Shown in pieces: positions 8,770 through 62,347 of a stretch of DNA of 64,000 bases. Origin of the DNA: Eledone cirrhosa (taxonomy: Eukaryota). Each line of letters begins with the position of its first letter. Positions within the stretch are counted from its first letter, which is position 1. The notes beneath the pieces were generated by a model, which worked only from the letters and a program-made list of their open reading frames with translations, was not told where the DNA came from and did not search any database. The stretch is from contig OZ024740.1 of NCBI GenBank assembly GCA_964016885.1, forward strand, positions 231,136,001 through 231,200,000, written 5' to 3'. Position numbers and translations under genes: made by a program.

Positions 8770-8828
8770 CTTGGCCATATTCTAAAGCTTCGTCAATGCT
8801 GTACTAAAATTTATATATATATATATTC

Positions 8829-30720: not shown

Positions 30721-30791
30721 ATATATGTTTATATATATATATATATGTTTATATATATATATATATGTTTATATATATATATATATATGTT

Positions 30792-30826
<35 letters not shown>

Positions 30827-31863: not shown

Positions 31864-32440
31864 TATAGCTGTATAACAAAGTGCAGGGCAATAAAGATAG
31901 ACGGTAGTCACGGAATAGGCAGACCTAGAAAAACCTGGGACGAGCTGATAAACTCCGACATCACACACTTACACCTCTCCAAGACAATGTCACTGGACCG
32001 AGACCTTTGGCGGTACTCAGTAACAGAGAAGACCCGCCTTACTTAAATATATAGTAAAACCTACTCCAGCCAGTAGGCATCTCTAACAAAATACACCCCG
32101 TCCCACCACCACCACCCCCACTCCATCCACACCACCCCGTTCTATGTAAAGTTATGTTGGTGCCGCGCCTTCGAGGCCGAAACAAATGAGATCGTGTAGG
32201 TGTCACGACAAAAAAACACAGTCCACGCTGTAATGTGGCCGTGTAGGCAACACGGTAAAAACCTCCCAGACCCACACTGTAAATGTGGTTGGTGTTAGGA
32301 AGGGCATCCAACTGTAGAAAACCTGCCAGACAGTCCTATGCGAGCAAGACAATCACTCTTGCCTCAAGTGGGACTACCCCCGTCCAAACCCATGCAAGCG
32401 TGGAACACGGACGTTAAACGTTGATGATGATGATGATGAT
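31864..32440 (+). mobile_element. RTE family B 5'-truncated copy 2
   Basis: [30 protein letters not shown] plus 3'UTR. Confidence 0.93.
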
Positions 32441-32489
32441 ATATATGTTTATATATATATATATATGTTTATATATATATATATATGTT

Positions 32490-32542
<53 letters not shown>

Positions 32543-32806
32543 ATATGTTTATATATATATATATATGTTTATATATTTATGTTTATATATATATATATGT
32601 TTATATATATATATATATGTTTATATATATATATATGTTTATATATATATGTTTATATATATATGTTTATATATATATATATGTTTATATATATATATAT
32701 GTTTATATATATATATATGTTTATATATATGTTTATATATATATATATATGTTTATATATATATATATGTTTATATATATATATATATGTTTATATATAT
32801 ATATAT

Positions 32807-33467
32807 TAAAAAATTAGAGATAAGAGGGATCAGATGTTGTTTACTCGAGAGAAGGCTACGTTGGTATGGACACGTGATGCGCATGAAAGTCGATAGCTGT
32901 ATAACAAAGTGCAGGGCAATAAAGATAGACGGTAGTCACGGAATAGGCAGACCTAGAAAAACCTGGGACGAGCTGATAAACTCCGACATCACACACTTAC
33001 ACCTCTCCAAGACAATGTCACTGGACCGAGACCTTTGGCGGTACTCAGTAACAGAGAAGACCCGCCTTACCTAAATATATAGTAAAACCTACTCCAGCCA
33101 GTAGGCATCTCTAACAAAATACACCCCGTCCCACCACCCCCACCCCCACCCCGATCCACACCACCCCGTTCTATGTAAAGTTATGTTGGTGCCGCGCCTT
33201 CGAGGCCGAAACAAATGAGATCGTGTAGGTGTCACGACAAAAAAACACACAGTCCACGCTGTAATGTGGCCGTGTAGGCAACACGGTAAAAACCTCCCAG
33301 ACCCACACTGTAAATGTGGTTGGTGTTAGGAAGGGCATCCAACTGTAGAAAACCTGCCAGACAGTCCTATGCGAGCAAGACAATCACTCTTGCCTCAAGT
33401 GGGACTACCCCCGTCCAAACCCATGCAAGCGTGGAACACGGACGTTAAACGTTGATGATGATGATGA
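32807..33467 (+). mobile_element. RTE family B 5'-truncated copy 3
   Basis: [31 protein letters not shown] plus 3'UTR. Confidence 0.93.
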
Positions 33468-33545
33468 TATATATATATATATGTTTATATATATATATAT
33501 ATGTTTATATATATGTTTATATATATATGTTTATATATATATATG

Positions 33546-33576
<31 letters not shown>

Positions 33577-34807
33577 GTTTATATATATGTATATGTTTAT
33601 ATATATATGTTTATATATATATATGTTTATATATGTATGTTAAATATATATGTTTATATATGTATATGTTTATATATATATACATGTATATGTTTATATA
33701 TGTATATGTTTATATATGTATATGTTTATATATATGTTTATATATGTATATGTTTATATATATATACATGTATATGTTTATATATATATATGTTTATATT
33801 ATACATATGTATATGTTTTATATATATATGTTTATATATACATATGTATATGTTTATATATGTATATGTTTATATATATATATGTTTATGTATATGTTTA
33901 GATATATATATGTTTATATATATATAGGTATATGTTTATATATATATATTATATTGTATATGTTTATATATATGTATATGTTTATATATATATATATATA
34001 TATGTATATGTTTATATATATGTATATGTTTATATATATATATATATATATGTATATGTTTATATATATGTATATGTTTATATATATATATATGTTTATA
34101 TATATATATATGTTTATATATATGTATATGTTTATATATATGTTTATATATATGTTTATATATATGTATATGTTTATATTATTATATATATGTTTATATA
34201 TATATGTATATGTTTATATATATATATGTATATGTTTATATATGTATATGTTTATATATGTATATGGTTTATATATGTATATGTTTATATATGTATATGG
34301 TTTATATATGTATATGTTTCTATATATATATATATATGTATATGTTTCTCTATATATATATATGTATATGTTTCTATATATATATATATGTATATGTTTC
34401 TATATATATATATATGTATATGTTTCTATATATATATATATATGTATATGTTTCTATATATATATATATATGTATATGTTTCTATATATATATATATATG
34501 TATATGTTTCTATATATATATATATATGTATATGTTTGTATATGTTTATATATGTATATGTTTATATATATGTATATGTTTATATATATGTATATGTTGA
34601 TATAGATATATATGTTTATATATATATGTAAATGTTTATATGTATATGTTTATATATATGGATATGTTTATATATATATATGGATATGTTTATATATATA
34701 TGCATATGTTTATATATGTATATCTTTATGTATATGTTTATATATGTATATATTTATATATATATGTATATGCTGATATATATGTATATGTTGATATATA
34801 TGTATAT

Positions 34808-35306: not shown

Positions 35307-37031
35307 TCGGGTTTGTGTCAGGCAAAAGTACCACAGACGCTCTTTTCATTGTACGACAACTACAGGAGAAGTACCTAGCTAAAAGCAAACCCCTATACTT
35401 AGCCTTCGACAGAGTCCCCCGTTCCATTATCTGGTGGGCTCTTAGAAAACTAGGTGTTGACAAATGGCTTGTGAGAGCTATACAAGCTATGTATAAAGAA
35501 ACAGTGAGCAAGGTTAGAATTAACAACGAATATAGTGAAGAGTTTAGCGTAAAAGTTGGTGTCCATTAGGGCTCTGTTCTTAGCCCCCTACTATTTATCA
35601 TTGCTCTTCAGGCTATAACAGAGGAGTTCAAGACCGGCTGCCCATGGGAACTCCTATACGCAGATGACCTAACGCTCATAGCTGAATCAATGGCCGAGCT
35701 AGAGAAGAAATTCAAAACATGGAAGCACGGCCTAGAATCAAAAGGCCTTAAAATTAACCTCGCTAAGACTAAAGTTCTAGTTTGTAGGAAAGAAAATAAG
35801 GCGCCGGTCCCTTCCGGGAAATGGCCATGCTCAGTGTGTAGGAAAGGTGTAGGTAGAAACTCCATTTTATGTCCCAAATGCAAAGTATGGGTGCATAAAA
35901 GATGTAGTGGGATCACAGGTAAGCTAACTAAGAACACAGATTTTACATGTGGCCGGTGCTCTGGTGCAATAAGTAGCAGCAAGTGCCCACAAAATACTAG
36001 CTCTTTCAACTGCGCAGAGGGTTCTATAGAAATAGTGGACAGCTTCCGTTACCTGGGTGACAAAATCAGCAGTGGGGGAGGGTGCTCTGAAAGTACAGTA
36101 GCTAGAGTCAGAACTGGATGGAAAAAGTTCAGAGAGCTTATACCACTATTAGCCGCTAAAGGGTTCTCCCTAAAAATGAAAGGCAGGTTGTATGATGCCT
36201 GCATACGAACAGCAATATTGCATGGCAGTGAGACCTGGGCATTGTGTGCAGAGGATATATGCAGACTAGAGAGGAACGAAGCTTGCATGCTCCGCTGGAT
36301 GTGTAATAGTAATATACGCGAACGGCAAAGCATAAACGAACTAAGGAAAAAATTAGAAATAAGAGGCATCAGATGTTGTTTACTCGAGAGAAAGCTACGT
36401 TGGTATGGTCACGTGATGCGCATGAAAGACGACAGCTGTATAGCAAAGTGCAGGGCAATAAAGATAGACGGTAGCCACGGAGTAGGCAGACCCAGAAAAA
36501 CCTGGGACGAGCTGATAAATTCCGACCTCGCACACTTACACCTCTCCAAGACAATGTCACTGGACCGAGACCTTTGGCGGTACTCAGTAATAGAGAAGAC
36601 CCGCCTTACCTAAATACAAAATACACTCCCGTCCCACCACCCCCACCCCATCCACACCGCCCCTTTCAATGTAAAGTTATGTTGGTACCACAAAATCCAG
36701 GCCGAAACAAACGAGATCGTGTAGGTGTCACAACAAAAAAAAACACACAGTCCACGCTGTAAATGTGGTTGGTGTCAGGAAGGGCATCCAGCTGTAGAAA
36801 ACCCGCCAGACAGTCCACGCTGTAATGTGGCCGTGTAGGCAACATGGTAAAAACCTCCCAGCCCCACACTGTAAATGTGGTTGGTGTTAGGAAGGGCATC
36901 CAACTGTAGAAAACCCGCCAGACAGTCCTATGCGAGCAAGACAACCACTCTAGCCTCAAGTGGGAAAACTCCCGTCCAAACCCATGCAAGCGTGGAACAT
37001 GGACGTTAAACGATGATGATGATGATGATGA
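35307..37031 (+). mobile_element. RTE family B 5'-truncated copy 4 (RT C-half, PHD-like finger, 3'UTR)
   Basis: FGFVSGKSTTDA, YADD, ORF 35690-36613. In-frame deletion of VDLEKAF and a premature TAG at 35567. Confidence 0.95.
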
Positions 37032-38736
37032 TATGTTTATATGTATATGTTTATATATATATATGTATATGTTTATGTATATGTTTATATATATATATGT
37101 ATATGTTTATATATATATGTATATATATTTCACTTCATTTTTTCCATTTATATATGTATATATATATATATATATATGTATATGTTTATATTTATATATA
37201 TATGTATATGTTTATATATATATATATATATGTATATGTTTTTATATATATATATATATGTGTAAATATATATATGTATGTTTTTATATATATATATATG
37301 TATATGTTTATATATGTATATGTTTATATATATATATATGTATATGTTTATATATATATATATGTATATGTTTATATATATATATATGTATGTTTATATA
37401 TATATATATGTATATGTTTATATATATATATATGTATGTTTATATATGTATATGTTTATATATGTATATGTTTATATATATATGTATATGTTTATATATA
37501 TATATATGTATATGTTTATATATGCATATGTTTCTATATATATATATATGTATATGTTTATATATATATATATATGTATATGTTTCTATATATATGTATA
37601 TGTTTATATGTATATGTTTATATATATATGTATATGTTTATATGTATATATGTTTATATGTATATATGTTTATATATGTATATGTTTATATATGTATATG
37701 TTTATATATGTATATGTTTGTATATGTTTATATATGTATATGTTTATATATGTATATGTTTATATATGTATATGTTTATATGTATATGTTTATACGTATA
37801 TGTTTATATATGTATATGTTTATATAGATATATATGTTTATATGTATATGTTTATATGTTTATATATATATATGTATATGTTTATATATATGCATATGTT
37901 TATATATATATGCATATGTTTATATATATATATGTATATGTTTATATGTATATGTTTATATGTTTATATGTATATGTTTATATATATATGTATATATTTA
38001 TTTATATATATATGTATATATTTATATATATATGTATATATTTATATATATATGTATATGTTGATATATATGTATATGTTGATATATATGTATATGTTGA
38101 TATATATGTATATGTTGATATATATGTATATGTTGATATATATGTATATGTTGATATATATGTATATGTTGATATATATGTATATGTTGATATGTATATG
38201 TTGATATATATGTATATGTTTATATATATATGTATATGTTTATATATATATGTATATGTTTATATATATATGTATACATTTATATATATATATATATGTA
38301 TATGTTTATATGTATATGTTTATATATATGTATATGTTTATATATATGTATATGTTTATATATATATGTATATGTTTATATATATATGTATATGTTTATG
38401 TATATGTTTATATATATATGTATGTTTATATATATGTATCTGTTTATATATATGTATCTGTTTATATCTATGTATATGTTTATATATATATGTATATGTT
38501 TATATATATATATTTGTATACGTTTATATATATGTATATGTTCAATATATATATGTATATGTTTATATATATGTATATATATTTCACTTCATTTTTTCCA
38601 TTTATATATATATATGTATATAAATATATATATATATATATATATGTATATGTTTATATATGTATGTTTATATATATATATATATGTATATGTTTTTATA
38701 TATATATATATATGTATATCTTTATATATGTATATG

Positions 38737-38772
<36 letters not shown>

Positions 38773-38791
38773 AATATATATGTATATGTTT

Positions 38792-38822
<31 letters not shown>

Positions 38823-38896
38823 TATATATATGTATATGTTTATATATATGTATATGTTTATATGTATATGTTTATATATATATGTATATGTTTATA

Positions 38897-38946
<50 letters not shown>

Positions 38947-40329
38947 TATGTTTTTAGATATATATGTATATGTTTATATATATATGTATATGTTTATAAA
39001 TGTATATATGTATATGTTTATATATGTATATGTTTATATATGTATGTTTATATATATATATGTATATTTTTATATATATATAGGTGTATATGTTTATATA
39101 TATATATATATATATATGTTTATGTATATGTTTATATATATATATGTTTATATATATGTATATGTTTATATATATGTTTATATATATGTATATGTTTATA
39201 TATGTATATGTTTATATATATATGTACATGTTTATATATATGTACATGTTTATATATATGTATATGTTTATATATATATATATGTGTATGTTTATATATA
39301 TATGTATATGTTTATATATATATATATATATATATGTATATGTTTATATATATATATATGTTTATATATATGTTTATATATATATGTATATGTTTATTTA
39401 TATATGTATATGTTTATATATGTATATGTTTATACATATATATATATGTATATGTTTATACATATATATATATATATGTTTATACATATATATATATGTG
39501 TATGTTTATATATATATGTATATGTTTATCCATATATATATATATATGTTTATACATATATATATATGTGTATGTTTATATGTATATGTTTATATATATA
39601 TGTATATGTTTATATATATATGTATATGTTTATATGTATGTTTATATATATATGTATATGTTTATATATATATGTATATGTTTATATATATGTATATGTT
39701 TATATATATATATATGTTTATATATATATGTATATGTTTATATATATATGTATATGTTTATATGTATGTTTTTTTTTTTTTTTTTTTTTATGTTTATATA
39801 TATGTATATGTTTATATATATATATATGTTTATATATATATGTATATGTTTATATATATATGTATATGTTTATATATATATGTATATGTTTATATATATA
39901 TGTATATGTTTATATATATATGTATATATATATGTATATGTTTATATATATATATATGTTTATATATATATATATGTTTATATATATGTATGTTTATATA
40001 TGTATATGTAAACAGTCATTATTATTATTAATATTATTATTATTATTCTCTACATTCCTTACATCAAACTAAAATATGTTGACAATCTTTTAATAATGTC
40101 TTCCTTGTGAAGTTAGTGGCCTTGTTTTGCTTAACTAATGAATATATATATATGTATATTTTATATATGTTATATATATATATATGTATATCTTCATATA
40201 TGTATATGTTTATATATGTATATTTTATATATGATATATATATATATATGTATATGTTTGTATATGTTTATATATATATATATATGTATATGTTTATATA
40301 TGTATATGTTTATATATATATATATATAG

Positions 40330-42138: not shown

Positions 42139-44370
42139 TCATCATCATCATCATCATCAACGTTTAACGTCCGTGTTCCACGCTTGCATGGGTTTGGACG
42201 GGAGTTTTCCCACTTGAGGCAAGAGTGATTATCTTGCTCGCATAGGACTATCTGGCGGGTTTTCTACAGCTGGATGCCCTTCCTAACACCAACCACATTT
42301 ACAGTGTGGGGCTGGGAGGTTTTTACCGTGTTGCCTACACGGCCACATTACAGCGTGGACTCTGTGTTTTTTGTCGTGACACCTACACGATCTCATTTGT
42401 TTCGGCCTGGATGTTGTGGCACCAACATAGCTTTACATTGAAAGGGGCGGTGTGGATGGGGTGGGGGTGGTGGGAGGGGGGCTGTATTTTGTTAGAGATG
42501 CCTACTGACTGTAGTAGGTTTTACTTTGTATTTAGGTAAGGCGGGTCTTCTCTATTACTGAGTACCACCAAAGGTCTCGGTCCAGTGACATTGTCTTGGT
42601 TAGGTGTAAGTGTGTGAGGTCGGAATTTATCAGCTCGTCCCAGGTCTTTCTGGGTCTGCCTATTCCACGGCTACCGTCTATCTTTATTGCCCTGCACTTT
42701 GTTATACAGCTATCGTCTTTCATGCGCATCACGTGACCATACCAACGTAGCCTTCTCTCGAGTAAACAACATCTGATCCCTCTTATTTCTAATTTTTTCC
42801 TTAGTTCGTTCATGCTTTGCCGTTCACGTATATTACTATTACACATCCAGCGGAGCATGCAAACTTCGTTTCTCTCTAGTCTGCGTATATCCTCTGCACA
42901 CAATGCCCAGGTCTCACTGCCAGGCAACATTGCTGTTCGTATGCAGGCATCATACAACCTGCGTTTCATTTTTAGGGAGAACCCTTTAGCAGCTAATAGT
43001 GGTATAAGCTCTTTGAACTTTTTCCATCCAGTTCTGACTCTAGCTACTGTACTTTCAGAGCACCCTCCCCCACTGCTGATTTTGTCACCCAGGTAACGGA
43101 AGCTGTCCACTATTTCTATAGAACCCTCTGCGCAGTTGAAAGAGCTAGTATTTTGTGGGCACTTGCTGCTACTTATTGCACCAGAGCACCGGCCACGTAA
43201 AATCTATGTTCTTAGTTAGCTTACCTGTGATCCCACTACATCTTTTATGCACCCATACTTTGCATTTGGGACACAAAATGGAGTTTCTACCTACGCCTTT
43301 CCTACACACTGAGCATGGCCACTTCCTGGAAGGGACCGCCGCCTTATTTTCTTTCTTACAAACTAGAACTTTAGTCTTAGCCAGGTTAATTTTAAGGCCT
43401 TTTGATTCTAGGCCGTGCTTCCATGTTTTGAATTTCTTCTCTAGCTCGGCCATTGATTCAACTATGAGTGTTAGATCATCTGCGTATAGGAATTCCCATG
43501 GGCAACCGGTCTTGAACTCCTCTGTTATAGCCTGAAGGGCAATAATAAATAATAGGGGGCTGAGAACAGAGCCCTGATGGACGCCAACTTTTACGCTAAA
43601 CTCTTCACTATATTCGTTGTTAATTCTAACCTTGCTGACTGTTTCTTTATACATGGCTTGTATAGCTCTCACAAGCCATTCGTCAACACCTAGTTTTCTA
43701 AGAGCCCACCAGATAATGGAACAGGGGACTCTGTCGAAGGCTTTCTCCAAGTCGACAAAAGCTAAGTATAGGGGTTTAATTTTAGCTAGGTACTTCTCCT
43801 GTAGTTGTCGTACAATGAAAAGAGCGTCTGTGGTACTTTTGCCTGACACAAACCCGAACTGCATTTCATCTAGACCACTTCTCTCTCTCATTAATTGCGC
43901 TATTACTCTTTCCGTGACCTTCATGATGTGGTCGATTAATTTAATGCCTCTATAGTTACTCCTATCTAGGGCATCTCCTTTACCCTTATAACAGTTAACG
44001 ATGATGCTGCTACGCCAGTCCTTCAGAACAACCCCATTCTGTACGACTTGGTTAACTATCCGGGTGACCATGGTGTGTCCCACCGTACCAGATGCCTTCA
44101 GCATCTCGGCAACTATTTCCGAAAACCCAGCCGCCTTACCCGTCTTCATATCTTTGATTGCCTTACTTATTGTACTACCCTCGACTAACACTGCTGGTCC
44201 CTCTATTGGGTCGATGTGGGGGAGACTGTCTTTCTCCCATTTATTCTCCTCATTTAGTAGCCTTTCATAGTGACACTTCCAAGCTACCTTCTTATCAGCG
44301 TCGGTGATGGCAAGTACGCCGTCATCATTAAGTACACACTTCTCCCCGACAATATCACAGTTTTCCTTGT
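42139..44370 (-). mobile_element. RTE family B 5'-truncated copy 5 (full RT domain, frameshifted)
   Basis: ORFs 43169-44191 and 42532-43110 with NYRGIKL, QFGF, DLEKAFD, GVHQGSVLSP, YADD. Confidence 0.96.
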
Positions 44371-44931
44371 TTATATATATGTTTATATATATATATATAT
44401 GTATATATATGTATATGTTTATATATATATATATATATGTTTATATATACATATATATGTTTATATATACATATATATATGTTTATATATACATATATAT
44501 GTTTATATATACATATATATGTATATGTTTATATATATATATGTTTATATATATGTATATGTTTATATATATGTATATGTTTATATATATATATATGTAT
44601 ATGTTTATGTATATGTTTATGTATATGTATATGTTTATATATATGTGTATATGTTTATATATTTATATGTGTATATGTTTATATATTTATATATGTATAT
44701 GTTTATATATTTATATATGTATATGTTTATATATTTATATATGTATATGTTTATATATTTATATATGTATATGTTTATATATTTATATATGTATATGTTT
44801 ATATATTTATATATGTATATGTTTATATATTTATATATGTATATGTTTATATATTTATATATGTATATGTTTATATATTTATATATGTATATGTTTATAT
44901 ATTTATATATGTATATGTTTATGTATATGTT

Positions 44932-45978: not shown

Positions 45979-46114
45979 TTTATATATTTATAAGTTTATA
46001 TATATATATGTTTATATATGTATATGTTTATATATATTTATATATATATATGTTTATATATATTTATATATATATATGAAAATAAACCAAAGAAGCCTTC
46101 AATACATCAAAAGT

Positions 46115-46168
46115 CTTTATTAGCCAACAATGTTTCGTCCTATTAAGGACTCATCAGGGCAATTAAAG
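46115..46168 (-). ncRNA. Canonical type I hammerhead ribozyme within an AT-rich Penelope-like fragment (about 46077-46730)
   Basis: Minus strand: CTTTAATTGCC-CTGATGA-GTCCT-TAAT-AGGAC-GAAA-CATTG-TT-GGCTAATAAAG. Intact core, 5-bp stem II, GUU cleavage triplet. Confidence 0.85.
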
Positions 46169-46827
46169 CTATATGAAGCACTATCAGCCAATACAAGCCG
46201 AAAACTCAAAAGAATATGGAGTGTACATAGATTAAATCAAAGGAAAATAATTGGGTAAAAATTATTAAGTAAAAAATTATCAAGTAAAAAATTATCAAGT
46301 AAAAAATTATCAAGTGAAAATTGCTAAGGAAATAAGTAACATTTTGAACCATATTACAAATATAGTCCAATTTAAAAACTAGAGCTAAAACAGAGGTGGT
46401 GATATAGAGCGGGAATTATTGTACTATATATAATATAATATAATACAATATAATATAATATAATTAATAATGATAATAATAATAATGTTAAAAGGCCCAA
46501 TATACATATATATATATATATGTACATATGTACACTTATATACATATATATCAATACACATTTCCATCAGTAGAAGCACAAACTAACCCTTATTAAGAGT
46601 TTAAATAAGAATAATAATAATAAAAATAAAAATAAAAATACAAATGAAAAATACAAATGAAAATAAAATTAAAATATAATACATATAATATTTACAGAAT
46701 AAAATGAAAAATAAATGATTAAAAGATATATATAGATATATGTATATGTTTATATATGTATATGTTTATATGTATATGTATGTGTTTATATATATATGTA
46801 TATGTATATGTTTATATATATATATAC

Positions 46828-46859
<32 letters not shown>

Positions 46860-47004
46860 GTATATGTATATGTTTATATATATATATATATATACGTATA
46901 TCTGTTTATATATATATATATATATATATCTGTTTATATATATATATATATATAAGTATGTATGTATACGTACATACATATATGTATACAGACGTACAGT
47001 AGCA

Positions 47005-47071
<67 letters not shown>

Positions 47072-47074
<3 letters not shown>

Positions 47075-47669
47075 GTAGATAAATCTACCAAGAGTTTACA
47101 GTAGTGTCCAATCCGTATGAAGAACTCAATGTATTCCGGATATCATGGAAAGAAGAGATGTAATGAAAAATCACTTTCGGTGAAAGATAAACGGTATACA
47201 GAGTCAAGATAAAATATTAAACAAATAATGAATAAAACAATGAAACAGTTCCTTATATTAAACAAAAAAAGTTCATTATTTAACGATCGTTTCTAGGATA
47301 TATATGTGTTAGAATTGGCATGCATATTCAACAGATCTATGTACAAAATTATACAAAATTATACAAACTATCAAGATTAAATATACATACCAACACATAT
47401 ATACGCCGTCTTCAGAAATAATGAAATATATTTATTGATAATAACAACAATTCAAAATTTCAGGTCCGTTTGGGAACAAAATTGACCAATGAAAATACAA
47501 AAGGTTTTATGCAATTCGGTGTGTGTATATACATGTAACTACCCCTTACACATATTTATACAAAAATGTATGCTCTAACACATATATATCCTAGAAACGA
47601 TCGTTAAATAATGAACTTTTTTTGTTTAATATAAGGAACTGTTTCATTGTTTTATTCATTATTTGTTTA

Positions 47670-47678
<9 letters not shown>
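47072..47678 (-). mobile_element. Penelope-like fragment with perfect 105-bp inverted repeat, nested in the TA tract of the preceding element
   Basis: 47209-47313 is the exact reverse complement of 47574-47678; (TA)n on both flanks. Confidence 0.78.
47274..47423 (-). ncRNA. Type I hammerhead with very long (about 115-nt) stem-loop II
   Basis: Minus strand: CATTATTT-CTGAAGA-[14-bp helix TATATATGTGTTGG/CTAACACATATATA + loop]-GAAA-CGATCG-TT-AAATAATG. Perfect 8-bp stem I, palindromic stem III. Confidence 0.75.
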
Positions 47679-47713
<35 letters not shown>

Positions 47714-47880
47714 CATATACATATATACATACAGGTACACATACATATATGCACGCATCAGTTTAGCGGACGCTTATTATAACGCCGCTTTGTTCGTTTG
47801 TAAACAAACTGAACAGCCTGAATTTATGCCATACGGTGTTAAGGCAACCACGTCACCTTTTTGTTCAACACTGACACAGG

Positions 47881-47925
47881 AACGATGTACTAGTTTCAAG
47901 CTTGTTAGCTATCATCAGCACCGTT
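47881..47925 (-). ncRNA. Minimal type I hammerhead ribozyme (copy 1)
   Basis: AACGGTG-CTGATGA-T-AGCT-AACA-AGCT-T-GAAA-CTAG-TA-CATCGTT; 7-bp stem I, palindromic ACTAGT stem III, GUA triplet. Confidence 0.87.
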
Positions 47926-48161
47926 TACCCATCTGCCAGATAGTTGAACGTTCGAAAGTATATACTTTCCTTATGAAAATTAACGGCTGAGCAGCCTAAT
48001 TTGCATATTGAGTGAGTTAAATCGGTCAGGCATACCGAAAACGATAAGTTGAAAAGAAAATGAAAACGAAATTTCATTTCTCACTCTTAGTATGGCACTT
48101 ACTTAAATGTAAGTATGTATGTATACGTACATACATATATGTATACAGACGTACAGTAGCA

Positions 48162-48235
<74 letters not shown>

Positions 48236-48402
48236 CATATACATATATACATACAGGTACACATACATATATGCACGCATCAGTTTAGCGGACGCTTATT
48301 ATAACGCCGCTTTGTTCGTTTGTAAACAAACTGAACAGCCTGGATTTATGCCATACGGTGTTAAGGCAACCACGTCACCTTTTTGTTCAACACTGACACA
48401 GG

Positions 48403-48447
48403 AACGATGTACTAGTTTCAAGCTTGTTAGCTATCATCAGCACCGTT
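48403..48447 (-). ncRNA. Minimal type I hammerhead ribozyme (copy 2)
   Basis: Identical to 47881-47925. Confidence 0.87.
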
Positions 48448-48558
48448 TACCGAGGCTTTTCAGTTTGCTTACAAACGAACAAAGCGGCGTTATAATAAGC
48501 GTCCGCTAAACTGATGCGTGCATATATGTATGTGTACCTGTATGTATATATGTATATG

Positions 48559-48598
<40 letters not shown>

Positions 48599-48711
48599 TG
48601 CTACTGTACGTCTGTATACATATATGTATGTACGTATACATACATACTTACATTTAAGTAAGTGCCATACTAAGAGTGAGAAATGAAATTTCGTTTTCAT
48701 TTTCTTTTCAA

Positions 48712-48752
<41 letters not shown>

Positions 48753-49164
48753 CTGTTTATATATATATATATATATGTATCTGTTTATATATATATATAT
48801 ATATATATGTATCTGTTTATATATATATATATGAATATGTATGTATATGTATATATATATACATATGTATATGTTTATATGTATATGTTTATATATATAT
48901 GTATATGTTTATAAATGTATATGTTTATATATATGTATATGTATGTATATATATATATATATATACATATGTATATGTTTATATATATATGTATATGTTT
49001 ATAAATGTATATGTTTATATATATGTACATGTTTATATATATATATATGTATATGTTTATAAATGTATATGTTTATATGTATGTATATATATATATATAT
49101 ATATACATATGTATATGTTTATATGTATATGTTTATAAATGTATATGTTTATGTATATGTACAT

Positions 49165-49202
<38 letters not shown>

Positions 49203-49562
49203 GTATATGTTTATATATATATGTATATGTTTATAAATGTATATGTTTATATATATGTACATGTTTATATATATATATATATATGTATATGCTTATATAT
49301 ATATATGTACATGTTTATATATGTATATAATATATATATATATGTATATGTTTATATATATGTATATGTTTATATATATGTATATGTTTATGTATATGTT
49401 TATATATGTATATGTTTATATATATATATATGTTTATATATATGTATATGTTTATATATATGTTTATATATATGTATATGTTTATATATATCTATGTTTA
49501 TATATATATGTATATATATATATAAATGTATATGTTTATATAAATGTATGTTTATATATATG

Positions 49563-49599
<37 letters not shown>

Positions 49600-49782
49600 G
49601 TATATGTTTATATATATGTATATATGTATATGTTTATATATATGTATATATATATATATGTATATGTTTATATATATGTATATATATATATGTATATGTT
49701 TATATATATGTATATATATATATATATGTATATGTTTATATATATGTATATATATATATATATATGTATGTTTATATATATT

Positions 49783-49814
<32 letters not shown>

Positions 49815-49819
49815 TGTAA

Positions 49820-49970
<151 letters not shown>

Positions 49971-49994
49971 TGTATATGTATATATATGTATATA

Positions 49995-50127
<133 letters not shown>

Positions 50128-50166
50128 GTATATATATGTATATATATATGTATATATGTATATATG

Positions 50167-50201
<35 letters not shown>

Positions 50202-50280
50202 GTATATATATGTATATATATATGTATATATGTATATATATATGTATATATATATGTATATATATGTATATATATATGTA

Positions 50281-50353
<73 letters not shown>

Positions 50354-50726
50354 GCATATATATATATATGTAATATATATATATGTATATATATATATAT
50401 GTATATGTTTATATATATGTATATATATAGATATGTATATGTTTATATATATGTATATATATATGTATATATATATATGTATATGTTTATATATATGCAT
50501 ATGTTTTATATATATGCATATGTTTATATATATGTATATGTTTTATATATATGTATATGTTTATATATGTATATGTTTAAATATATATATGTTTATATAT
50601 ATATGTATATGTTGATATATATATATATCTATATGTTGATATATATATATATGTATATGTTGATATATATATGTATATGTTGATATATATATATGTATAT
50701 GTTGATATATATATATATGTATATTT

Positions 50727-50782
<56 letters not shown>

Positions 50783-51538
50783 GTTTATAAAGATATATAT
50801 ATGTATATGTTTATATATATTTATATATATATGTATATGTTTATATATATGTTTATATATATGTATATGTTTATATATATGTATAAGTTTATATATATGT
50901 ATATATATATATGTTTATAATATATATGTTTATATATGTATATGTTTATATATGTATATGTTTATATATATGTATATGTTTTATATATATGTATATGTTT
51001 TATATATATGTATATGTTTATATATATGTATATGTTTATATATGTGTATGTTTATATATATATATGTTTATATATATGTATATGTTTATATATATATGTA
51101 TATGTTTATATATATTTTATGTATATGTTTATATGTATATGTTATATATATGTATATGTTGATATATATATATGTATGTTTATATATATGTATATGTTGA
51201 TATTATATATATGTATGTTTTATATATATGTATGTTTATATATATTTATGTATATGTTTATATGTATATGTTTATATATATGTATATGTTGATATATATA
51301 TATGTATGTTTATATATATGTATGTTTATATATATATGTATGTTTATATATATATATGTATGTTTATATATATATATGTATATGTTTATGTATATATATG
51401 TCTTTGTTTATGTATATATATGTATATGTTTATATGTATATGTTTATATATATATATATATGGATATATATATATATGGATATATTTATATATATGTATA
51501 TGTATATATATATATGTATATATATGTATATGTATATA

Positions 51539-51639
<101 letters not shown>

Positions 51640-51698
51640 GTATATGTATATATGTATATGTACATATATATGTAGATATATATATATATGTATATATG

Positions 51699-51761
<63 letters not shown>

Positions 51762-51926
51762 GCATATATATATATATATGTATATATATATATGTATATG
51801 TAGATATATATTTATATGTATATATATATGTATATATATATATAAATGTATATATATATGTATATGTATATATATATGTATATGTATATATGTATATATA
51901 TATGTATATGTATATATATATATATG

Positions 51927-51957
<31 letters not shown>

Positions 51958-52086
51958 GTATATATATGTATATATATATATGTATATGTATATGTATATG
52001 TATATATATATGTATATATATATATATATGTATATATATGTATATGTATATGTATATATATATGTATATATATATATATATGTATA

Positions 52087-52127
<41 letters not shown>

Positions 52128-52152
52128 ATATATGTATATATATATATGTATA

Positions 52153-52187
<35 letters not shown>

Positions 52188-52300
52188 ATATATGTATATG
52201 TATATATATATGTATATGTATATATATATGTATATGTATATATATATGTGTATATATATATGTATGTATATGTATATATATATATGTATATAAATATATG

Positions 52301-52403
<103 letters not shown>

Positions 52404-52577
52404 GTATATGTGTATATATGTGTATATATATGTATATGTGTATATATGTGTATATATATGTATATGTATATATATATATGTATATATATATATGTATATA
52501 TATATATGTATATATATATATGTATATATATATATGTATATATGTATATGTATGTATATATATGTATATATGTATAT

Positions 52578-52631
<54 letters not shown>

Positions 52632-52790
52632 ATGTATATATGTATATATATATGTATATATGTATATATATATATGTATATATGTATATGTATATATATA
52701 TGTATATATGTATATATATATATGTATATATGTATATGTATATATATATTGTATATATATATGTATATATATGTATATATATATGTATAT

Positions 52791-52977
52791 ATCTATCTAT
52801 CTATCTAAGGCGGGTAAAATTCCCGAGATCCATGGACGAGTTCTCTCCAGCGGTCTCTGTCCCTCATTATCGCTTGCCATATCCTGCATCTCCAACAGAC
52901 CAGTGTCTGTCCTTAGGGCATCAACATATGTTAACCTTGGTCTTCCTCTTCTAGTGTGTCCATGTAGGGGCTCCCAA
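52791..52977 (-). mobile_element. Family D LINE 3' fragment with (TAGA)n tail
   Basis: Reverse complement of 34918-35095 with few differences. Confidence 0.88.
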
Positions 52978-52993
52978 TATATATATGTATATA

Positions 52994-53038
<45 letters not shown>

Positions 53039-53141
53039 GTATATATATATGTATGTATATATGTATATATATATGTATATGTATATATGTATATATATAT
53101 ATATATGTATATATATATGTATATATATATGTATATATATG

Positions 53142-53190
<49 letters not shown>

Positions 53191-53217
53191 GTATATATGT
53201 ATATATATATGTATATG

Positions 53218-53248
<31 letters not shown>

Positions 53249-53391
53249 GTATATATATATATGTATATATGTATATATATATATGTATATATATATATGT
53301 ATATATATATATGTGTATATATATATATGTGTATATATATATGTATATATATATGTATATATGTATATATATATATGTATATATATATATG

Positions 53392-53438
<47 letters not shown>

Positions 53439-53623
53439 GTATATGTATATATGTATATATATATGTATATATATATGTATATATATTTATATATATATAT
53501 ATGTATATATATATGTATATATATGTATATATATATATATATGTATACATATATGTATATATATATGTATATATATATATGTATATATATGTATATGTAT
53601 ATATATGTATATGTATATATATG

Positions 53624-53670
<47 letters not shown>

Positions 53671-53691
53671 GTATGTATATATATATGTATG

Positions 53692-53760
<69 letters not shown>

Positions 53761-53804
53761 GTATATATATATATGTATATATATATATGTTATATATATA
53801 TATG

Positions 53805-53853
<49 letters not shown>

Positions 53854-53884
53854 GTATATATATATATGTATTTATATATATATG

Positions 53885-53947
<63 letters not shown>

Positions 53948-54353
53948 GTATATATATATATGTATATATATATATATGTTATATATATATATGTATATAT
54001 ATATATGTATATATATGTATATATATATGTATATATATATATGTATATATATGTGTATATATATGTATATATATATATATGTATATATATATGTATATAT
54101 ATATGTATATATATATGTATATATATATATATGTATATATATATATGTATATATATATATGTATATATGTATATATATGTATATATATATATGTATATAT
54201 TTTATATATATGTATATATATATATGTATATATATATGTATATATATATATATGTATATATATATGTTATATGTATATATATGTATATTTATATGTATAT
54301 ATGTATATATATGTATATATTATATATATATGTATATATATATATATGTATAT

Positions 54354-54418
<65 letters not shown>

Positions 54419-54430
54419 TGTATATATATG

Positions 54431-54528
<98 letters not shown>

Positions 54529-54529
54529 C

Positions 54530-54795
<266 letters not shown>

Positions 54796-54872
54796 GTATA
54801 TATGTATATATATATATGTATATATATATATATGTATATATATATATGTATATATATATATGTATATATATG

Positions 54873-54923
<51 letters not shown>

Positions 54924-54998
54924 GTATATATATATATGTATATATATATGTATATATGTATATATATATATGTATATATATATATGTATATATATATG

Positions 54999-55030
<32 letters not shown>

Positions 55031-55042
55031 TGTATATATATG

Positions 55043-55120
<78 letters not shown>

Positions 55121-55128
55121 TATATGTG

Positions 55129-55162
<34 letters not shown>

Positions 55163-55168
55163 TATGTG

Positions 55169-55247
<79 letters not shown>

Positions 55248-55258
55248 GTATATATATG

Positions 55259-55311
<53 letters not shown>

Positions 55312-55367
55312 GTATATATATGTATATATATATATGTATATATATATATGTATATATATATGTATAT

Positions 55368-55421
<54 letters not shown>

Positions 55422-55578
55422 GTATATATGTATATATGTATATATGTATATATATGTATATATATATATGTATATATGTATATATATATATGTATATATA
55501 TATATGTATATATGTATATATATATATATGTATATATGTATATATATATATATATGTATATATGTATATATATATATG

Positions 55579-55627
<49 letters not shown>

Positions 55628-55648
55628 GTATATATGTATATATATATG

Positions 55649-55695
<47 letters not shown>

Positions 55696-55718
55696 GTATA
55701 TATGTATATATATATATG

Positions 55719-55797
<79 letters not shown>

Positions 55798-55820
55798 GTA
55801 TATATGTATATATATATATG

Positions 55821-55903
<83 letters not shown>

Positions 55904-55977
55904 ATATATATATGTATATGTATATATATATATATGTATATATATATATGTATATGTATATATATATATATGTATAT

Positions 55978-56047
<70 letters not shown>

Positions 56048-56069
56048 GTGTATATATGTATATGTATAT

Positions 56070-56116
<47 letters not shown>

Positions 56117-56162
56117 GTATATATATATATGTATATATATATATATGTATAATATATATATG

Positions 56163-56193
<31 letters not shown>

Positions 56194-56254
56194 GTATATA
56201 TATATATGTATATATATATCTGTATATATATATATATATGTATATATATATCTG

Positions 56255-56285
<31 letters not shown>

Positions 56286-56327
56286 GTATATATATATATG
56301 TATATATATATATGTATGTATATATGT

Positions 56328-56400
<73 letters not shown>

Positions 56401-56528
56401 TATGTATATATATATATGTATGTATATATATATATGGTATATATATATATGTATATATATATATGTATATGTATATGTATATATATATATGTATATTATA
56501 TATATGTATATTATATTATATGTATATG

Positions 56529-56561
<33 letters not shown>

Positions 56562-56625
56562 GTATATATGTATATGTATGTATATGTATATATATGTATA
56601 TATATGTATATATATATATATATGT

Positions 56626-56659
<34 letters not shown>

Positions 56660-56758
56660 GTATATATATGTATATATATATATATATGTATATATATGTA
56701 TATATATATGTATGTATATATATATGTATATATATATATGTATATATATGTATATATG

Positions 56759-56791
<33 letters not shown>

Positions 56792-56818
56792 GTATATATA
56801 TGTATATATATATGTATG

Positions 56819-56893
<75 letters not shown>

Positions 56894-56898
56894 GTATG

Positions 56899-56997
<99 letters not shown>

Positions 56998-57028
56998 GTA
57001 TATATATATATATGTATATATATGTATG

Positions 57029-57061
<33 letters not shown>

Positions 57062-57120
57062 GTATATATATATATGTATATATATATATGTATATATATA
57101 TATGTATATGTATATACATG

Positions 57121-57171
<51 letters not shown>

Positions 57172-57552
57172 GTATATATATATATATGTATATATGTATA
57201 TATATGTATATATGTATATATATGTATATATATGTATATATGTATATGTATATATATATATATGTATATATATGTATATATATATATGTATATATAAATA
57301 TATATATGTATATATATATATGTATATATATATATGTATATGTATATATATATATGTATATATATATATGTATATGTATATATATATATGTATATATATA
57401 TGCATATATATATATGTATATATATATGTATATATGTATATATGCATATATGTGTATATATATATATGTGTATATATATATATGTGTATATATATGTATA
57501 TATATATGTATATATGTATATATGTATATATGTGTATATATATATATATGTG

Positions 57553-57583
<31 letters not shown>

Positions 57584-57612
57584 GTATATATATATATGTA
57601 TATATATATATG

Positions 57613-57643
<31 letters not shown>

Positions 57644-57672
57644 GTATATATATATATGTATATATATATATG

Positions 57673-57703
<31 letters not shown>

Positions 57704-57816
57704 GTATATGTATATATGTATATATGTATATATATATATATGTATATATGTATATGTATATATATATATGTATATGTATATATATATGTATATATATGTA
57801 TATATATACATATATG

Positions 57817-57850
<34 letters not shown>

Positions 57851-57862
57851 TGTATATATATG

Positions 57863-57895
<33 letters not shown>

Positions 57896-57896
57896 G

Positions 57897-57943
<47 letters not shown>

Positions 57944-57944
57944 G

Positions 57945-57976
<32 letters not shown>

Positions 57977-58005
57977 TGTATATATATGTATATATATGTA
58001 TATGT

Positions 58006-58039
<34 letters not shown>

Positions 58040-58535
58040 GTATATATATGTATATATATATATATATGTATATATATGTATATATATGTATATATATGTA
58101 TATATATGTATATATATGTATATATATGTATATATATATATATATGTATATGTATATATATATGTATATATATATGTATATATATATATGTATATATATG
58201 TATATATATATATATATGTATATATATATGTATATATATATGTATATATATATATGTATATATATGTATATATATGTATATATATGTATATATATGTGTA
58301 TATATATGTATATATATATATATATGTATATATATATGTATATATATATATATGTATATATATGTATATATATGTATATATATGTGTATATATATGTATA
58401 TGTATATATATGTGTATATATATGTATATATATATATATGTATATATATGTATATATATGTATATATATGTATATATATATATATATGTATATATGTATA
58501 TATATGTATATATATGTATATATATGTATATATAT

Positions 58536-58708
58536 GTTGGTAAACGGAATAGAAAATGCTGACAAATTGTTCACAGTTGAAAAACGGTTTAATTAGGAAT
58601 AAAAGAGTATTAGTGATTGTATGGGTTAGTATTCAGTTGTGGTTTTAAGTTTTTAAATTTTTACCGGTTGCGCATTTCTAAATGCTTTTCAAAAATAATT
58701 TTGAGGTA
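58536..58708 (-). other. Unique island in the microsatellite, possibly a Penelope ORF-end remnant
   Basis: Minus strand reads [11 protein letters not shown], resembling the KP.LN ending of Penelope GIY-YIG domains. Weak. Confidence 0.25.
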
Positions 58709-59080
58709 TATATATGTATATATATGTATATATATATGTATATATTTATATATGTATATATATATGTATATATATATGTATATATATGTATATATTTATA
58801 TATGTATATATTTATATATGTATATATATATGTATATATATATGTATATATATGTATATGTATATATATGTATATATTTATATATGTATATATTTATATA
58901 TGTATATATATATGTATATATATGTATATATTTATATATGTATATATTTATATATGTATATATATATGTATATATATATGTATATATATGTATATGTATA
59001 TATATGTATATATTTATATATGTATATATATATGTATATATATATATATATGTATATATTTATATATGTATATATATATG

Positions 59081-59111
<31 letters not shown>

Positions 59112-59136
59112 GTATATGTATATATATATGTATATA

Positions 59137-59171
<35 letters not shown>

Positions 59172-59208
59172 ATATATGTATTTATATATATATGTATATA
59201 TATATATG

Positions 59209-59287
<79 letters not shown>

Positions 59288-59311
59288 GTATAATATATAT
59301 GTATATATATG

Positions 59312-59342
<31 letters not shown>

Positions 59343-59382
59343 GTATAATATATATGTATATATATATATGTATATATATATG

Positions 59383-59413
<31 letters not shown>

Positions 59414-59474
59414 GTATATGTATATATATGTATATATATATATGTATATATATATATGTATATATATATATATG

Positions 59475-59523
<49 letters not shown>

Positions 59524-59606
59524 GTATATATATATATGTATATATATATATGTATATATATATATGTATATATATATATGTATATATATATGTATATATA
59601 TATATG

Positions 59607-59663
<57 letters not shown>

Positions 59664-59680
59664 GTATATATATTTATATG

Positions 59681-59763
<83 letters not shown>

Positions 59764-59776
59764 GTATATATATATG

Positions 59777-59909
<133 letters not shown>

Positions 59910-59922
59910 GTATATATATATG

Positions 59923-60099
<177 letters not shown>

Positions 60100-60114
60100 G
60101 TATATATATATGTG

Positions 60115-60161
<47 letters not shown>

Positions 60162-60204
60162 GTATATATATATATGTATATATATATGTATATTTATATA
60201 TGTG

Positions 60205-60254
<50 letters not shown>

Positions 60255-60268
60255 TATTTATATATGTG

Positions 60269-60299
<31 letters not shown>

Positions 60300-60302
60300 G
60301 TG

Positions 60303-60425
<123 letters not shown>

Positions 60426-60426
60426 G

Positions 60427-60507
<81 letters not shown>

Positions 60508-60532
60508 GTATATATGTATATTTATATATATG

Positions 60533-60563
<31 letters not shown>

Positions 60564-60616
60564 GTATATATATGTATATATGTATATATATGTATATATA
60601 TGTATATGTATATATG

Positions 60617-60647
<31 letters not shown>

Positions 60648-60658
60648 GTATATACATG

Positions 60659-60721
<63 letters not shown>

Positions 60722-61437
60722 GTATATATGTATATATATATATATGTATATATATATGTATATATATATGTATATATATATGTATATATATATGTATATA
60801 TATATGTATATATATATGTATGTATATATATATGTATGTATATGTATATATATATGTATGTATATATATATGTATGTATATGTATATATATATGTATATG
60901 TATGTATAGTATATGTATGTATATGTATATATATATGTATGTATATATGTATGTATATGTATATATATATGTATATATATATGTATATATATATGTATGT
61001 ATATATATATGTATGTATATATATATGTATGTATGTATGTATATATGTATGTATGTATATATATATGTATGTATATATATATGTATGTATATATGTATGT
61101 ATGTATATATATATGTATGTATGTATATATGTATGTATGTATATATGTATGTATGTATATATATATGTATGTATGTATATATGTATGTATGTATATATAT
61201 ATGTATGTATGTATATATATATGTATGTATATATATATGTATGTATGTATATATATATGTATGTATATATATATGTATGTATATATATATGTATGTATGT
61301 ATATATATATGTATGTATATATATATGTATGTATATATATGTATATATATATGTATGTATATATATATGTATGTATATACATATGTATGTATATACATAT
61401 GTATGTATATATATATGTATGTATATATATATGTATG

Positions 61438-61474
<37 letters not shown>

Positions 61475-62347
61475 TTATCTATATATATATATATATATAT
61501 ATACATATCGAAATGTACTAATAGTTATAGCCATTTAATATTGGAAAACTGATTTTTATCAGATTAATGAAAATTAAGCAAACAGTGTTCAAGATAGATG
61601 GTTTTATCGGAAAAAAATCACTTTAAATGCAGGTTGGAACACACAGATTGGTTGAAATTTGGATTATCAGAGCTATTCCCTTGTGTATTGTAATAAAGGA
61701 CTAATGGAAAAATACAAGCAGATTTGGTACAAAGAATAACATCTGCCCACAGTAACTATCATCATCATTTAATGTGCATATAAAAAAAATTTGCAAGATG
61801 GCCGTGGTATAAAGATTTTTTAATATAAGGACAAGAGACAAGAAGATATAAATATTTGAATTAATCAAAGATGTAAATATTTTGTTTGTAACTATATTAT
61901 TTTTTTTTTCATTTGATGTCAGCATGATTTAATTAATGTATTCCATAGTTGAATGGAAAAGACAGATTTAGTTTAAAACTGAAGATGAATTAAAATTTGC
62001 TAATCTGTACGATATATAACTATAATGTTTAGTTACATCTTACTACTTCTAAATTCACCTTCAATAAAAATTCTATAGGCAAAATCAATCTCAACAGGAT
62101 TTAAAATACCAACATAAAACAATGTAACTAAATACCAGAAGATATTTTGTCTGCAGCCTAGCTGGTTCTGATTGAATATCTATTTAAAAAAATATCATTG
62201 AAAATACTACTAATGATTGTGTCATCATCATAATTTTTACATCTGCTTTTCCATACTGGCATGGGTTGAACGAGACTTCCTGATGTCAAGTATATGGTGT
62301 ACCTATTCTAAAAAACTGGGGTACATACAGTAATGATTATATATATA

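Follow-up and report, generated by a model that had tools for sequence, protein, structure and literature searches.

Animal non-LTR retrozymes are tandem hammerhead repeats whose mobilisation by Penelope-like elements (PLEs) has so far been argued from shared hammerheads, co-occurrence and trees of pseudo-LTRs (pLTRs) (10.64898/2026.07.22.740005; PMC7229834). In the axolotl, HHR_Amex1 has a one-pair helix III with a palindromic tetraloop and HHR_Amex2 a U·U at the base of helix II. As monomers, motifs with such helices cleaved to 6% and 22%, as dimers to a much greater extent, and circles arise from both repeats (PMC7229834); a dimer mechanism is likewise described in PMC6155905. Among predicted retrozyme dimers from Xenopus, only one of nine cleaved in vitro (10.64898/2026.07.22.740005). 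Internal promoters, moreover, occur in the hammerhead satellites of newts and schistosomes (PMC2220036).

PLE insertions are described as partial tandems, mostly 5'-truncated, which often carry an inverted 5'-truncated copy and a tail of 30-40 bp at one end, and several PLE clades favour (TA)n targets (PMC8557442). The purified PLE protein of Anolis nicks both strands at AT-rich DNA and accepts unprocessed RNA as template, on which reverse transcription begins at two internal sites, one on either side of the tail; the ribozyme of this element (PAc) cut only with the protein present (PMC11167929). In cephalopods, the repeat annotation of Octopus vulgaris reports 31 recently active Penelope-like families, and the available passages of that paper mention neither 'retrozyme' nor 'ribozyme' (PMC13282606). 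Likewise, in the available passages of the retrozyme preprint (10.64898/2026.07.22.740005), 'inverted' occurs solely in a reference title. Our best-ranked literature matches held no cephalopod retrozyme and no retrozyme with inverted-plus-tail insertions; the supplements of PMC7229834 and of the 2026 preprint, which lay outside the search, may list such cases.

In the following, we describe a locus in a 64-kb stretch of Eledone cirrhosa DNA, which was analysed as a whole and is referred to as the window. The locus is probably a single insertion of a large family of non-coding type I hammerhead repeats, i.e. of a non-LTR retrozyme, which was likely copied into (TA)n by an endonuclease and RT that a Penelope-like element supplied in trans. 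It comprises about 1.65 tandem non-coding units and a 5'-truncated inverted copy joined to them head-to-head, with (TA)n on both sides (Table 1). The element lies on the minus strand, and we number its monomer from window position 48409 (position 1, just past the upstream predicted cut) to 47888 (position 522).

Table 1. Features of the element and of the segment nested in it (window coordinates)
Feature	Position	Strand	Basis or spacing
Main copy 3' end, monomer ~246-300; stops at ACTTA, then (TA)n flank	46953..47007	-	Unit alignment
Pure TA tract, 65 nt; one half of the second unit's internal tract	47008..47072		Unit alignment
Segment Z, separate non-coding insert in the element's TA tract; main part 47073-47573 (-), inverted piece of 102 bp 47574-47675 (+)	47073..47675	-	
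Pure TA tract, 32 nt; other half of the second unit's tract	47676..47707		Unit alignment
Second unit, monomer 1-180	47708..47887	-	Unit alignment
Downstream type I hammerhead, extended stem I, loop II AACA, predicted cut 47888/47887	47863..47949	-	Core match, fold
Complete 522-nt monomer, cut site to cut site, 33% GC	47888..48409	-	Unit alignment
16-bp palindrome holding TATATA; candidate TATA box	47954..47969		30-35 nt upstream of copied-strand start
ATGCAAAT, candidate octamer promoter element	47999..48006	-	70-77 nt upstream of copied-strand start
Monomer 301-365, 65 nt between end points; at the inverted end only; putative equivalent of the Penelope 'tail'	48045..48109	-	
Internal pure TA tract, 67 nt; degenerate self-complementary flanks; long hairpin	48165..48231		Fold, alignment
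Upstream hammerhead, identical core, without the outer 5' arm of stem I	48403..48451	-	Core match, unit alignment
Inverted 5'-truncated copy, monomer 69-366, TA tract 33 nt; stops at ACTTA(T), then TA-rich array 48714-61508	48453..48714	+	

The partial tandem repeat and the inverted copy of about 260 bp had both been proposed in the original prediction, and both are borne out: 47676-47929 and 48198-48451 are 99.2% identical, with two mismatches (47708 and 47821), and the inverted copy carries two substitutions and a TA tract that is 34 nt shorter. From its start at 48451 (position 481), the main strand covers 42 nt before the first predicted cut, then a full 522-nt unit up to the second, and continues for 300 nt to 46953. 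Its template thus measured 864 nt, and it crosses the predicted cut site twice without a scar. At 48452, a single extra base forms the head-to-head joint with the plus-strand copy. Both outer ends of the locus are 3' ends, each stopping at ACTTA followed by (TA)n. This motif occurs twice per unit (296-300 and 361-365), giving end points 65 nt apart; the two sites are among 30 TA sites outside the tract, and 5 of the 435 pairs of such sites share the three preceding bases. All four ends in the nest, counting those of segment Z, are TTA, or four of five if the end of a separate hammerhead fragment at 46078 (not TTA) is included. These end-point arguments all rest on one locus, and a target-site duplication (by a criterion of >4 bp) is unreadable in the (TA)n that flanks it on both sides.

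Two properties of the copies bear on what was copied. The inverted copy and the main copy both read from position 300 to 301 unbroken; since the inverted copy leaves this joint unchanged, the joint was present in the template, and the unit is a true permuted repeat rather than a re-initiated pLTR. Likewise, the TA tract is found in all three copies and was therefore part of the template, which agrees with the earlier claim that the element carries a (TA)n tract of its own. The local hairpins named in the original prediction, i.e. the palindrome and a GC hairpin, are also present. A fold z of -11 for the whole monomer was discounted, since the TA tract accounts for it: the remaining parts give -2.1 and -2.4. 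The internal tract and its flanks (48130-48280) fold as a hairpin of about 55 pairs, which is a possible substrate for double-stranded RNA editing or silencing.

In line with the proposed lack of a recognisable coding sequence, no Pfam family was found for the two longest element frames tested (153 and 131 aa), and no frame in 46078-48716 encodes an RT with a GIY-YIG endonuclease. Among the scanned frames of the window, the long ones with an RT belong to RVT_1 and are of the AP-endonuclease LINE type; no autonomous PLE ORF was found among them.

Both type I hammerheads are found on the minus strand as predicted, 522 bp apart, with cores starting at 48440(-) and 47918(-) and identical sequence across 47881-47925 and 48403-48447. 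Their core reads CTGATGA...GAAACTAGTA. Stem I is formed by AACGGUG paired with CAUCGUU; stem II, after the core, has four pairs, an AACA loop and a U·U at its base, and is followed on its 3' side by GAAA, the palindrome ACUAGU, which forms a weak helix III of one pair, and a GUA triplet. The cuts predicted earlier (47888/47887 and 48410/48409) each fall directly after this triplet. The description of the hammerheads as minimal, by contrast, appears inaccurate, given the long and bulged stem I, the one-pair palindromic stem III and the U·U: around the downstream motif, stem I comprises some 24 pairs with bulges, and in the modelled structure the motif takes the full type I form, helix III being weak. 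Set against the minimal PLE-type criterion (no helix III, no peripheral loop contact), it has a helix III of one pair, a long, bulged stem I and a helix II of 4 bp with a loop. In the upstream motif, the outer 5' arm of stem I is missing, as the copied strand starts 42 nt ahead of the predicted cut.

The 93-nt extended hammerhead has a fold z of -3.5, with none of 200 shuffles as stable, and a type I hammerhead descriptor matched the window at the two motif sites only and nowhere in 30 shuffles of 42 kb. No Rfam family matched at the gathering score; the best sub-threshold matches of the two motifs were to HH9, with 22.9 bits (E 0.027) and 18.5 bits (E 0.71). Matches of the miRNA type in Rfam were rejected as TA-repeat noise, and two further motifs, at 15510 and 63722, fail both descriptor and fold and were set aside. 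The core pattern gave no match in the metagenome and viral contigs searched. Pairing probabilities are predicted to be 0.9-1.0 in stem II and 0.4-0.9 in the outer part of the inner stem I, and only 0.18-0.33 for the three core-side pairs of stem I; neither hammerhead is predicted to be sequestered by the inverted arm. Because the motif unites both axolotl handicaps, the one-pair palindromic helix III and the U·U, paired cleavage is predicted, and by analogy with the axolotl precedent the palindromic ACUAGU would make dimer-type cleavage the likely mode. To the stronger prediction, that the ribozymes cut well only as a pair and so release monomers that can be ligated to circles, we give even weight.

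The element belongs to a family that is widely represented in public data: words of 47731-48164 were found in 20 of 24 listed public runs, from 15 studies, with 0.95 of the sampled words in the best run, and no RNA run is among the listed runs that hold them. In this best run (X1), 5,005 contigs map to this stretch, and the share of them running on into unlike sequence is 0, which upholds the original view of a non-autonomous hammerhead-bearing family rather than a lone pLTR. These contigs are short, with none spanning the whole stretch, and the last 68 letters (48097-48164) were skipped as repeat; given this shortness, a minority form of the family that bears an ORF may exist. Of the 29 bins, 25 had depth in run X1, with similar summed values of 0.28-2.0 million; the eight single contigs shown had 13-74, depth not being copy number. 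If run X1 represents genomic DNA, we infer that the family would comprise tens of thousands of copies, of which the 64-kb window holds no other.

At a threshold of at least 5%, 21 sites vary in run X1. Six of them lie in the 87-nt extended hammerhead, four at unpaired positions (loop II, 48%; core position 7, 36%; two in outer stem I, 16% and 22%), one in a wobble (7%) and one in a terminal pair (35%); the last two, at 47921 and 47925, turn pairs into U·U. None falls in the 12 core positions or the 4 further palindrome positions (P ~0.003 for at most one of six among 66 constrained of 87 positions; post hoc). The U·U at the base of stem II is the family state, with 0.1% changed, and no compensatory changes were seen among these ribozyme variants. 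Family variants thus appear to spare the ribozyme core and the inner helices, a pattern that points to constraint on the ribozyme. Elsewhere in the unit, about half of the family depth is changed at 48048 in the second ACTTA, with TTA left intact. Footprints of A-to-I editing are not in excess among the 21 sites (two T>C on the plus strand). Within the unit, variation in run X1 is highest at 48020-48064, with indels and loose ends, which could reflect subfamilies or possibly the scar of a deleted ORF.

The variable sites also link the copies at this locus to each other. Wherever both of its units cover a polymorphic site, 11 sites in all, they carry the same allele (P 0.04 if the sites are independent, which linkage weakens), and the inverted copy agrees at six of six (P 0.09). 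Neither difference between the units is a listed family variant, 47821 being absent from the 21 sites and 47708 lying outside the mapped stretch. Together, this suggests that the copies derive from one template or from one homogeneous source locus.

Runs X4-X20, which carry 14 other organism labels and include one wastewater metagenome, hold 0.36-0.74 of the sampled words. The two of them that were mapped are shallow: X4 has 17 contigs on the stretch (depth 0-190, 15 of 29 bins) and X19 has six (depth up to 30, 19 of 29 bins). Mapping covered four of the 24 listed runs; in the fourth, the raw-read run X24, none of 12.8 million reads matched, which carries no weight as a test. We do not claim horizontal transfer, as carry-over of a very abundant repeat or the presence of related species fits equally well. 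Loose ends at 47928-47929 in these two runs were considered as a shared 5' end and dropped, at least one X4 contig matching the ribozyme core only.

Candidate promoter signals lie upstream of the copied-strand start. The palindrome with its TATATA shows no family variant at or above 5% in run X1, and it is accompanied by ATGCAAAT, which we regard as a candidate octamer promoter element and which occurs in the window at chance frequency (3 seen, 3.6 expected). In Pol II promoters, TATA boxes and octamers are found at spacings like those in Table 1. The 5' end of the copied strand at this one locus may therefore hint at a start set by a promoter or, equally plausibly, at a stop at the edge of a strong helix.

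The surroundings of the element are rich in TA arrays, remnants of AP-endonuclease/RT LINEs and SINE-like repeats. Long degenerate TA-rich arrays of up to 12.8 kb (48714-61508, 37038-40010, 30719-34807) show strong strand skew and have LINE 3' fragments among them. A tandem satellite of 41 bp, with about 157 copies and 92% matches, occupies 3-6396, and broken LINE copies with AP-endonuclease and RT frames lie at 8808-11468, 35307-36762 and 42348-44440, two with a PHD-finger match after the RT. At 46078-46250 (-), a separate, canonical-looking hammerhead (46119-46163; Rfam Hammerhead_1, 29.1 bits, below the cut-off of 34) ends against a TA tract; this fragment, which shows no similarity to the element, is likely a pLTR fragment of another PLE.

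The segment at 47073-47675 (segment Z) is absent from the original prediction. It is a distinct insert of the inverted type, and it repeats the layout of the element: a 501-nt minus-strand part is joined to a 102-bp inverted piece, and the outer ends are TTA followed by (TA)n. The segment is AT-rich, has no hammerhead core and gives a fold z of -3.4. From this layout, we infer that it represents a nested Penelope-type insertion, possibly of another PLE passenger. This raises the more speculative idea of a self-seeding retrozyme: with every copy, a new (TA)n target would become available to the same Penelope machinery, and the family would thereby create landing sites for itself and add to the TA microsatellite load of the genome. 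We put this forward tentatively. If true, segment Z would be this loop caught in the act, and the fixed RT starts (300 and 365) and the internal promoter would be cis signals by which a ribozyme RNA hijacks the RT of a PLE.

The tandem-plus-inverted ends that the original prediction named as typical of Penelope insertion are indeed those of the locus; with the 5' truncation of the inverted copy, the putative tail on one side and the (TA)n target, they suggest a course of events. A tandem source locus would have been transcribed, possibly from the TATA/octamer promoter inside the unit. A PLE protein would then have nicked both strands of a TA tract and primed at two internal RNA sites, 300 and 365. 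One cDNA would have run 864 nt, crossing the cut site twice and ending 42 nt past the second crossing; the other would have stopped after about 300 nt, and the two would have joined head-to-head. Later, a second element would have landed in the copied TA tract. Since the cDNA crosses the predicted cut site twice, its template would have been either circular or a tandem RNA that had not been cleaved. Of the two, the tandem transcript accounts for the insertion no less well, because PLE RT used unprocessed RNA in vitro (PMC11167929) and so few of the Xenopus dimers cleaved. The position of the 5' end behind the candidate promoter signals may also hint at a primary transcript, and a circle would further require 342 nt of strand displacement. 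We favour the uncleaved tandem primary transcript as the somewhat probable template; a circle read by rolling-circle synthesis is a plausible but less probable one, and jumps between cut monomers are unlikely.

Alternatively, the units could be nothing but the pLTRs of an autonomous, ORF-bearing Penelope-like element that was inserted as 5'-truncated tandem and inverted pieces. PLE insertions mostly have this form (PMC8557442), pLTRs carry hammerheads, retrozymes are near them in sequence (10.64898/2026.07.22.740005), and a rare ORF-bearing master could hide behind short contigs. However, the unbroken joint at 300/301 places the 522-nt permutation in the template, the part upstream of the hammerhead is as deep in run X1 as the rest, with no share of contigs running on into unlike sequence, and helices I and II of the motif appear complete, which would set it apart from the minimal PLE type. 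We therefore regard this origin as improbable for the locus; that the unit itself arose from a PLE through an internal deletion would agree with the retrozyme reading.

It is slightly less probable still that the repeat spread at the DNA level, by unequal exchange, slippage or break repair in TA tracts, with the hammerhead as an inert relic. In favour of this, every junction is flanked by TA tracts, which are fragile, two helices of the motif are weak, and eight of nine predicted retrozymes were inactive in vitro (10.64898/2026.07.22.740005). Such processes are nevertheless hard to reconcile with arms that are offset by an unmatched loop of 110 nt, with two outer ends that are both 3' ends at one motif, with a segment Z that repeats the layout of the element, or with common variants that avoid core and helices. 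Finally, the tandem and the inversion could stem from misassembly, through reads that were chimeric or folded back in the midst of long TA arrays, as the locus adjoins a TA-rich array of 12.8 kb and no run X1 contig spans it. This we consider highly unlikely: private substitutions and unequal tract lengths set the three copies apart, the inversion forms no centred palindrome, the ends of the locus lie at one motif, and the unit itself is real in public runs. The retrozyme insertion by a PLE thus remains our preferred reading.

By sequence, non-LTR retrozymes are recognised as at least two tandem units with a complete type I hammerhead each, non-coding, without LTR, below 50% GC and part of a repeated family, all of which is found here; at the level of sequence, the element would accordingly be classed as a non-LTR retrozyme and, having no ORF, not as an autonomous PLE. 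With the animal non-LTR retrozymes described so far (PMC7229834; 10.64898/2026.07.22.740005), it shares tandem non-coding units with one type I hammerhead each, a GC content below 50% and, in all likelihood, a high copy number. Its 522-nt unit is within the published range of 51-972 bp (10.64898/2026.07.22.740005), and the weak helix III and the U·U in helix II recur in the axolotl retrozymes (PMC7229834). Relative to the available descriptions, it differs in its internal (TA)n tract, its inverted 5'-truncated copy and its putative one-sided tail.

With the GIY-YIG PLEs (Neptune, Naiad, Poseidon; PMC8557442, PMC11167929), the element has in common the partial tandem with an inverted copy, the (TA)n target, the two internal end points bounding a putative tail and a hammerhead in the repeat. 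By contrast, it has no ORF, its putative tail measures 65 nt at this one locus compared with 30-40 in print, and Naiads, as described, are without canonical hammerheads. The non-autonomous Chlamys PLEs, such as MRC1, likewise form non-coding head-to-tail multicopy insertions that depend on a PLE, but they are algal, and a hammerhead is not the rule there (PMC8557442). Newt satellite 2 (cited in PMC7229834, PMC6155905 and PMC2220036) shares the tandem unit, the dimer-type hammerhead (here predicted) and an internal promoter, of the snRNA type in the newt and in the form of candidate motifs here; it differs in its unit of 330 bp and its long arrays, and the TATA-plus-octamer layout of our element is a putative one.

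The class itself is known, and what appears to be new relative to these descriptions is the PLE-type footprint on a retrozyme insertion and an internal target tract with a nested insert. Here, the retrozyme insertion itself bears the PLE-type marks, i.e. the inverted copy, the putative tail and the TA target. The locus moreover records a cDNA that crosses the predicted cut site twice, which bears on the choice between circle and tandem transcript as template, a question for both the retrozyme and the PLE literature. In so large a family, the ends of further copies could show RT start sites and the type of template, and by way of the internal target tract a retroelement may be tied to microsatellite growth in a manner that can be tested.
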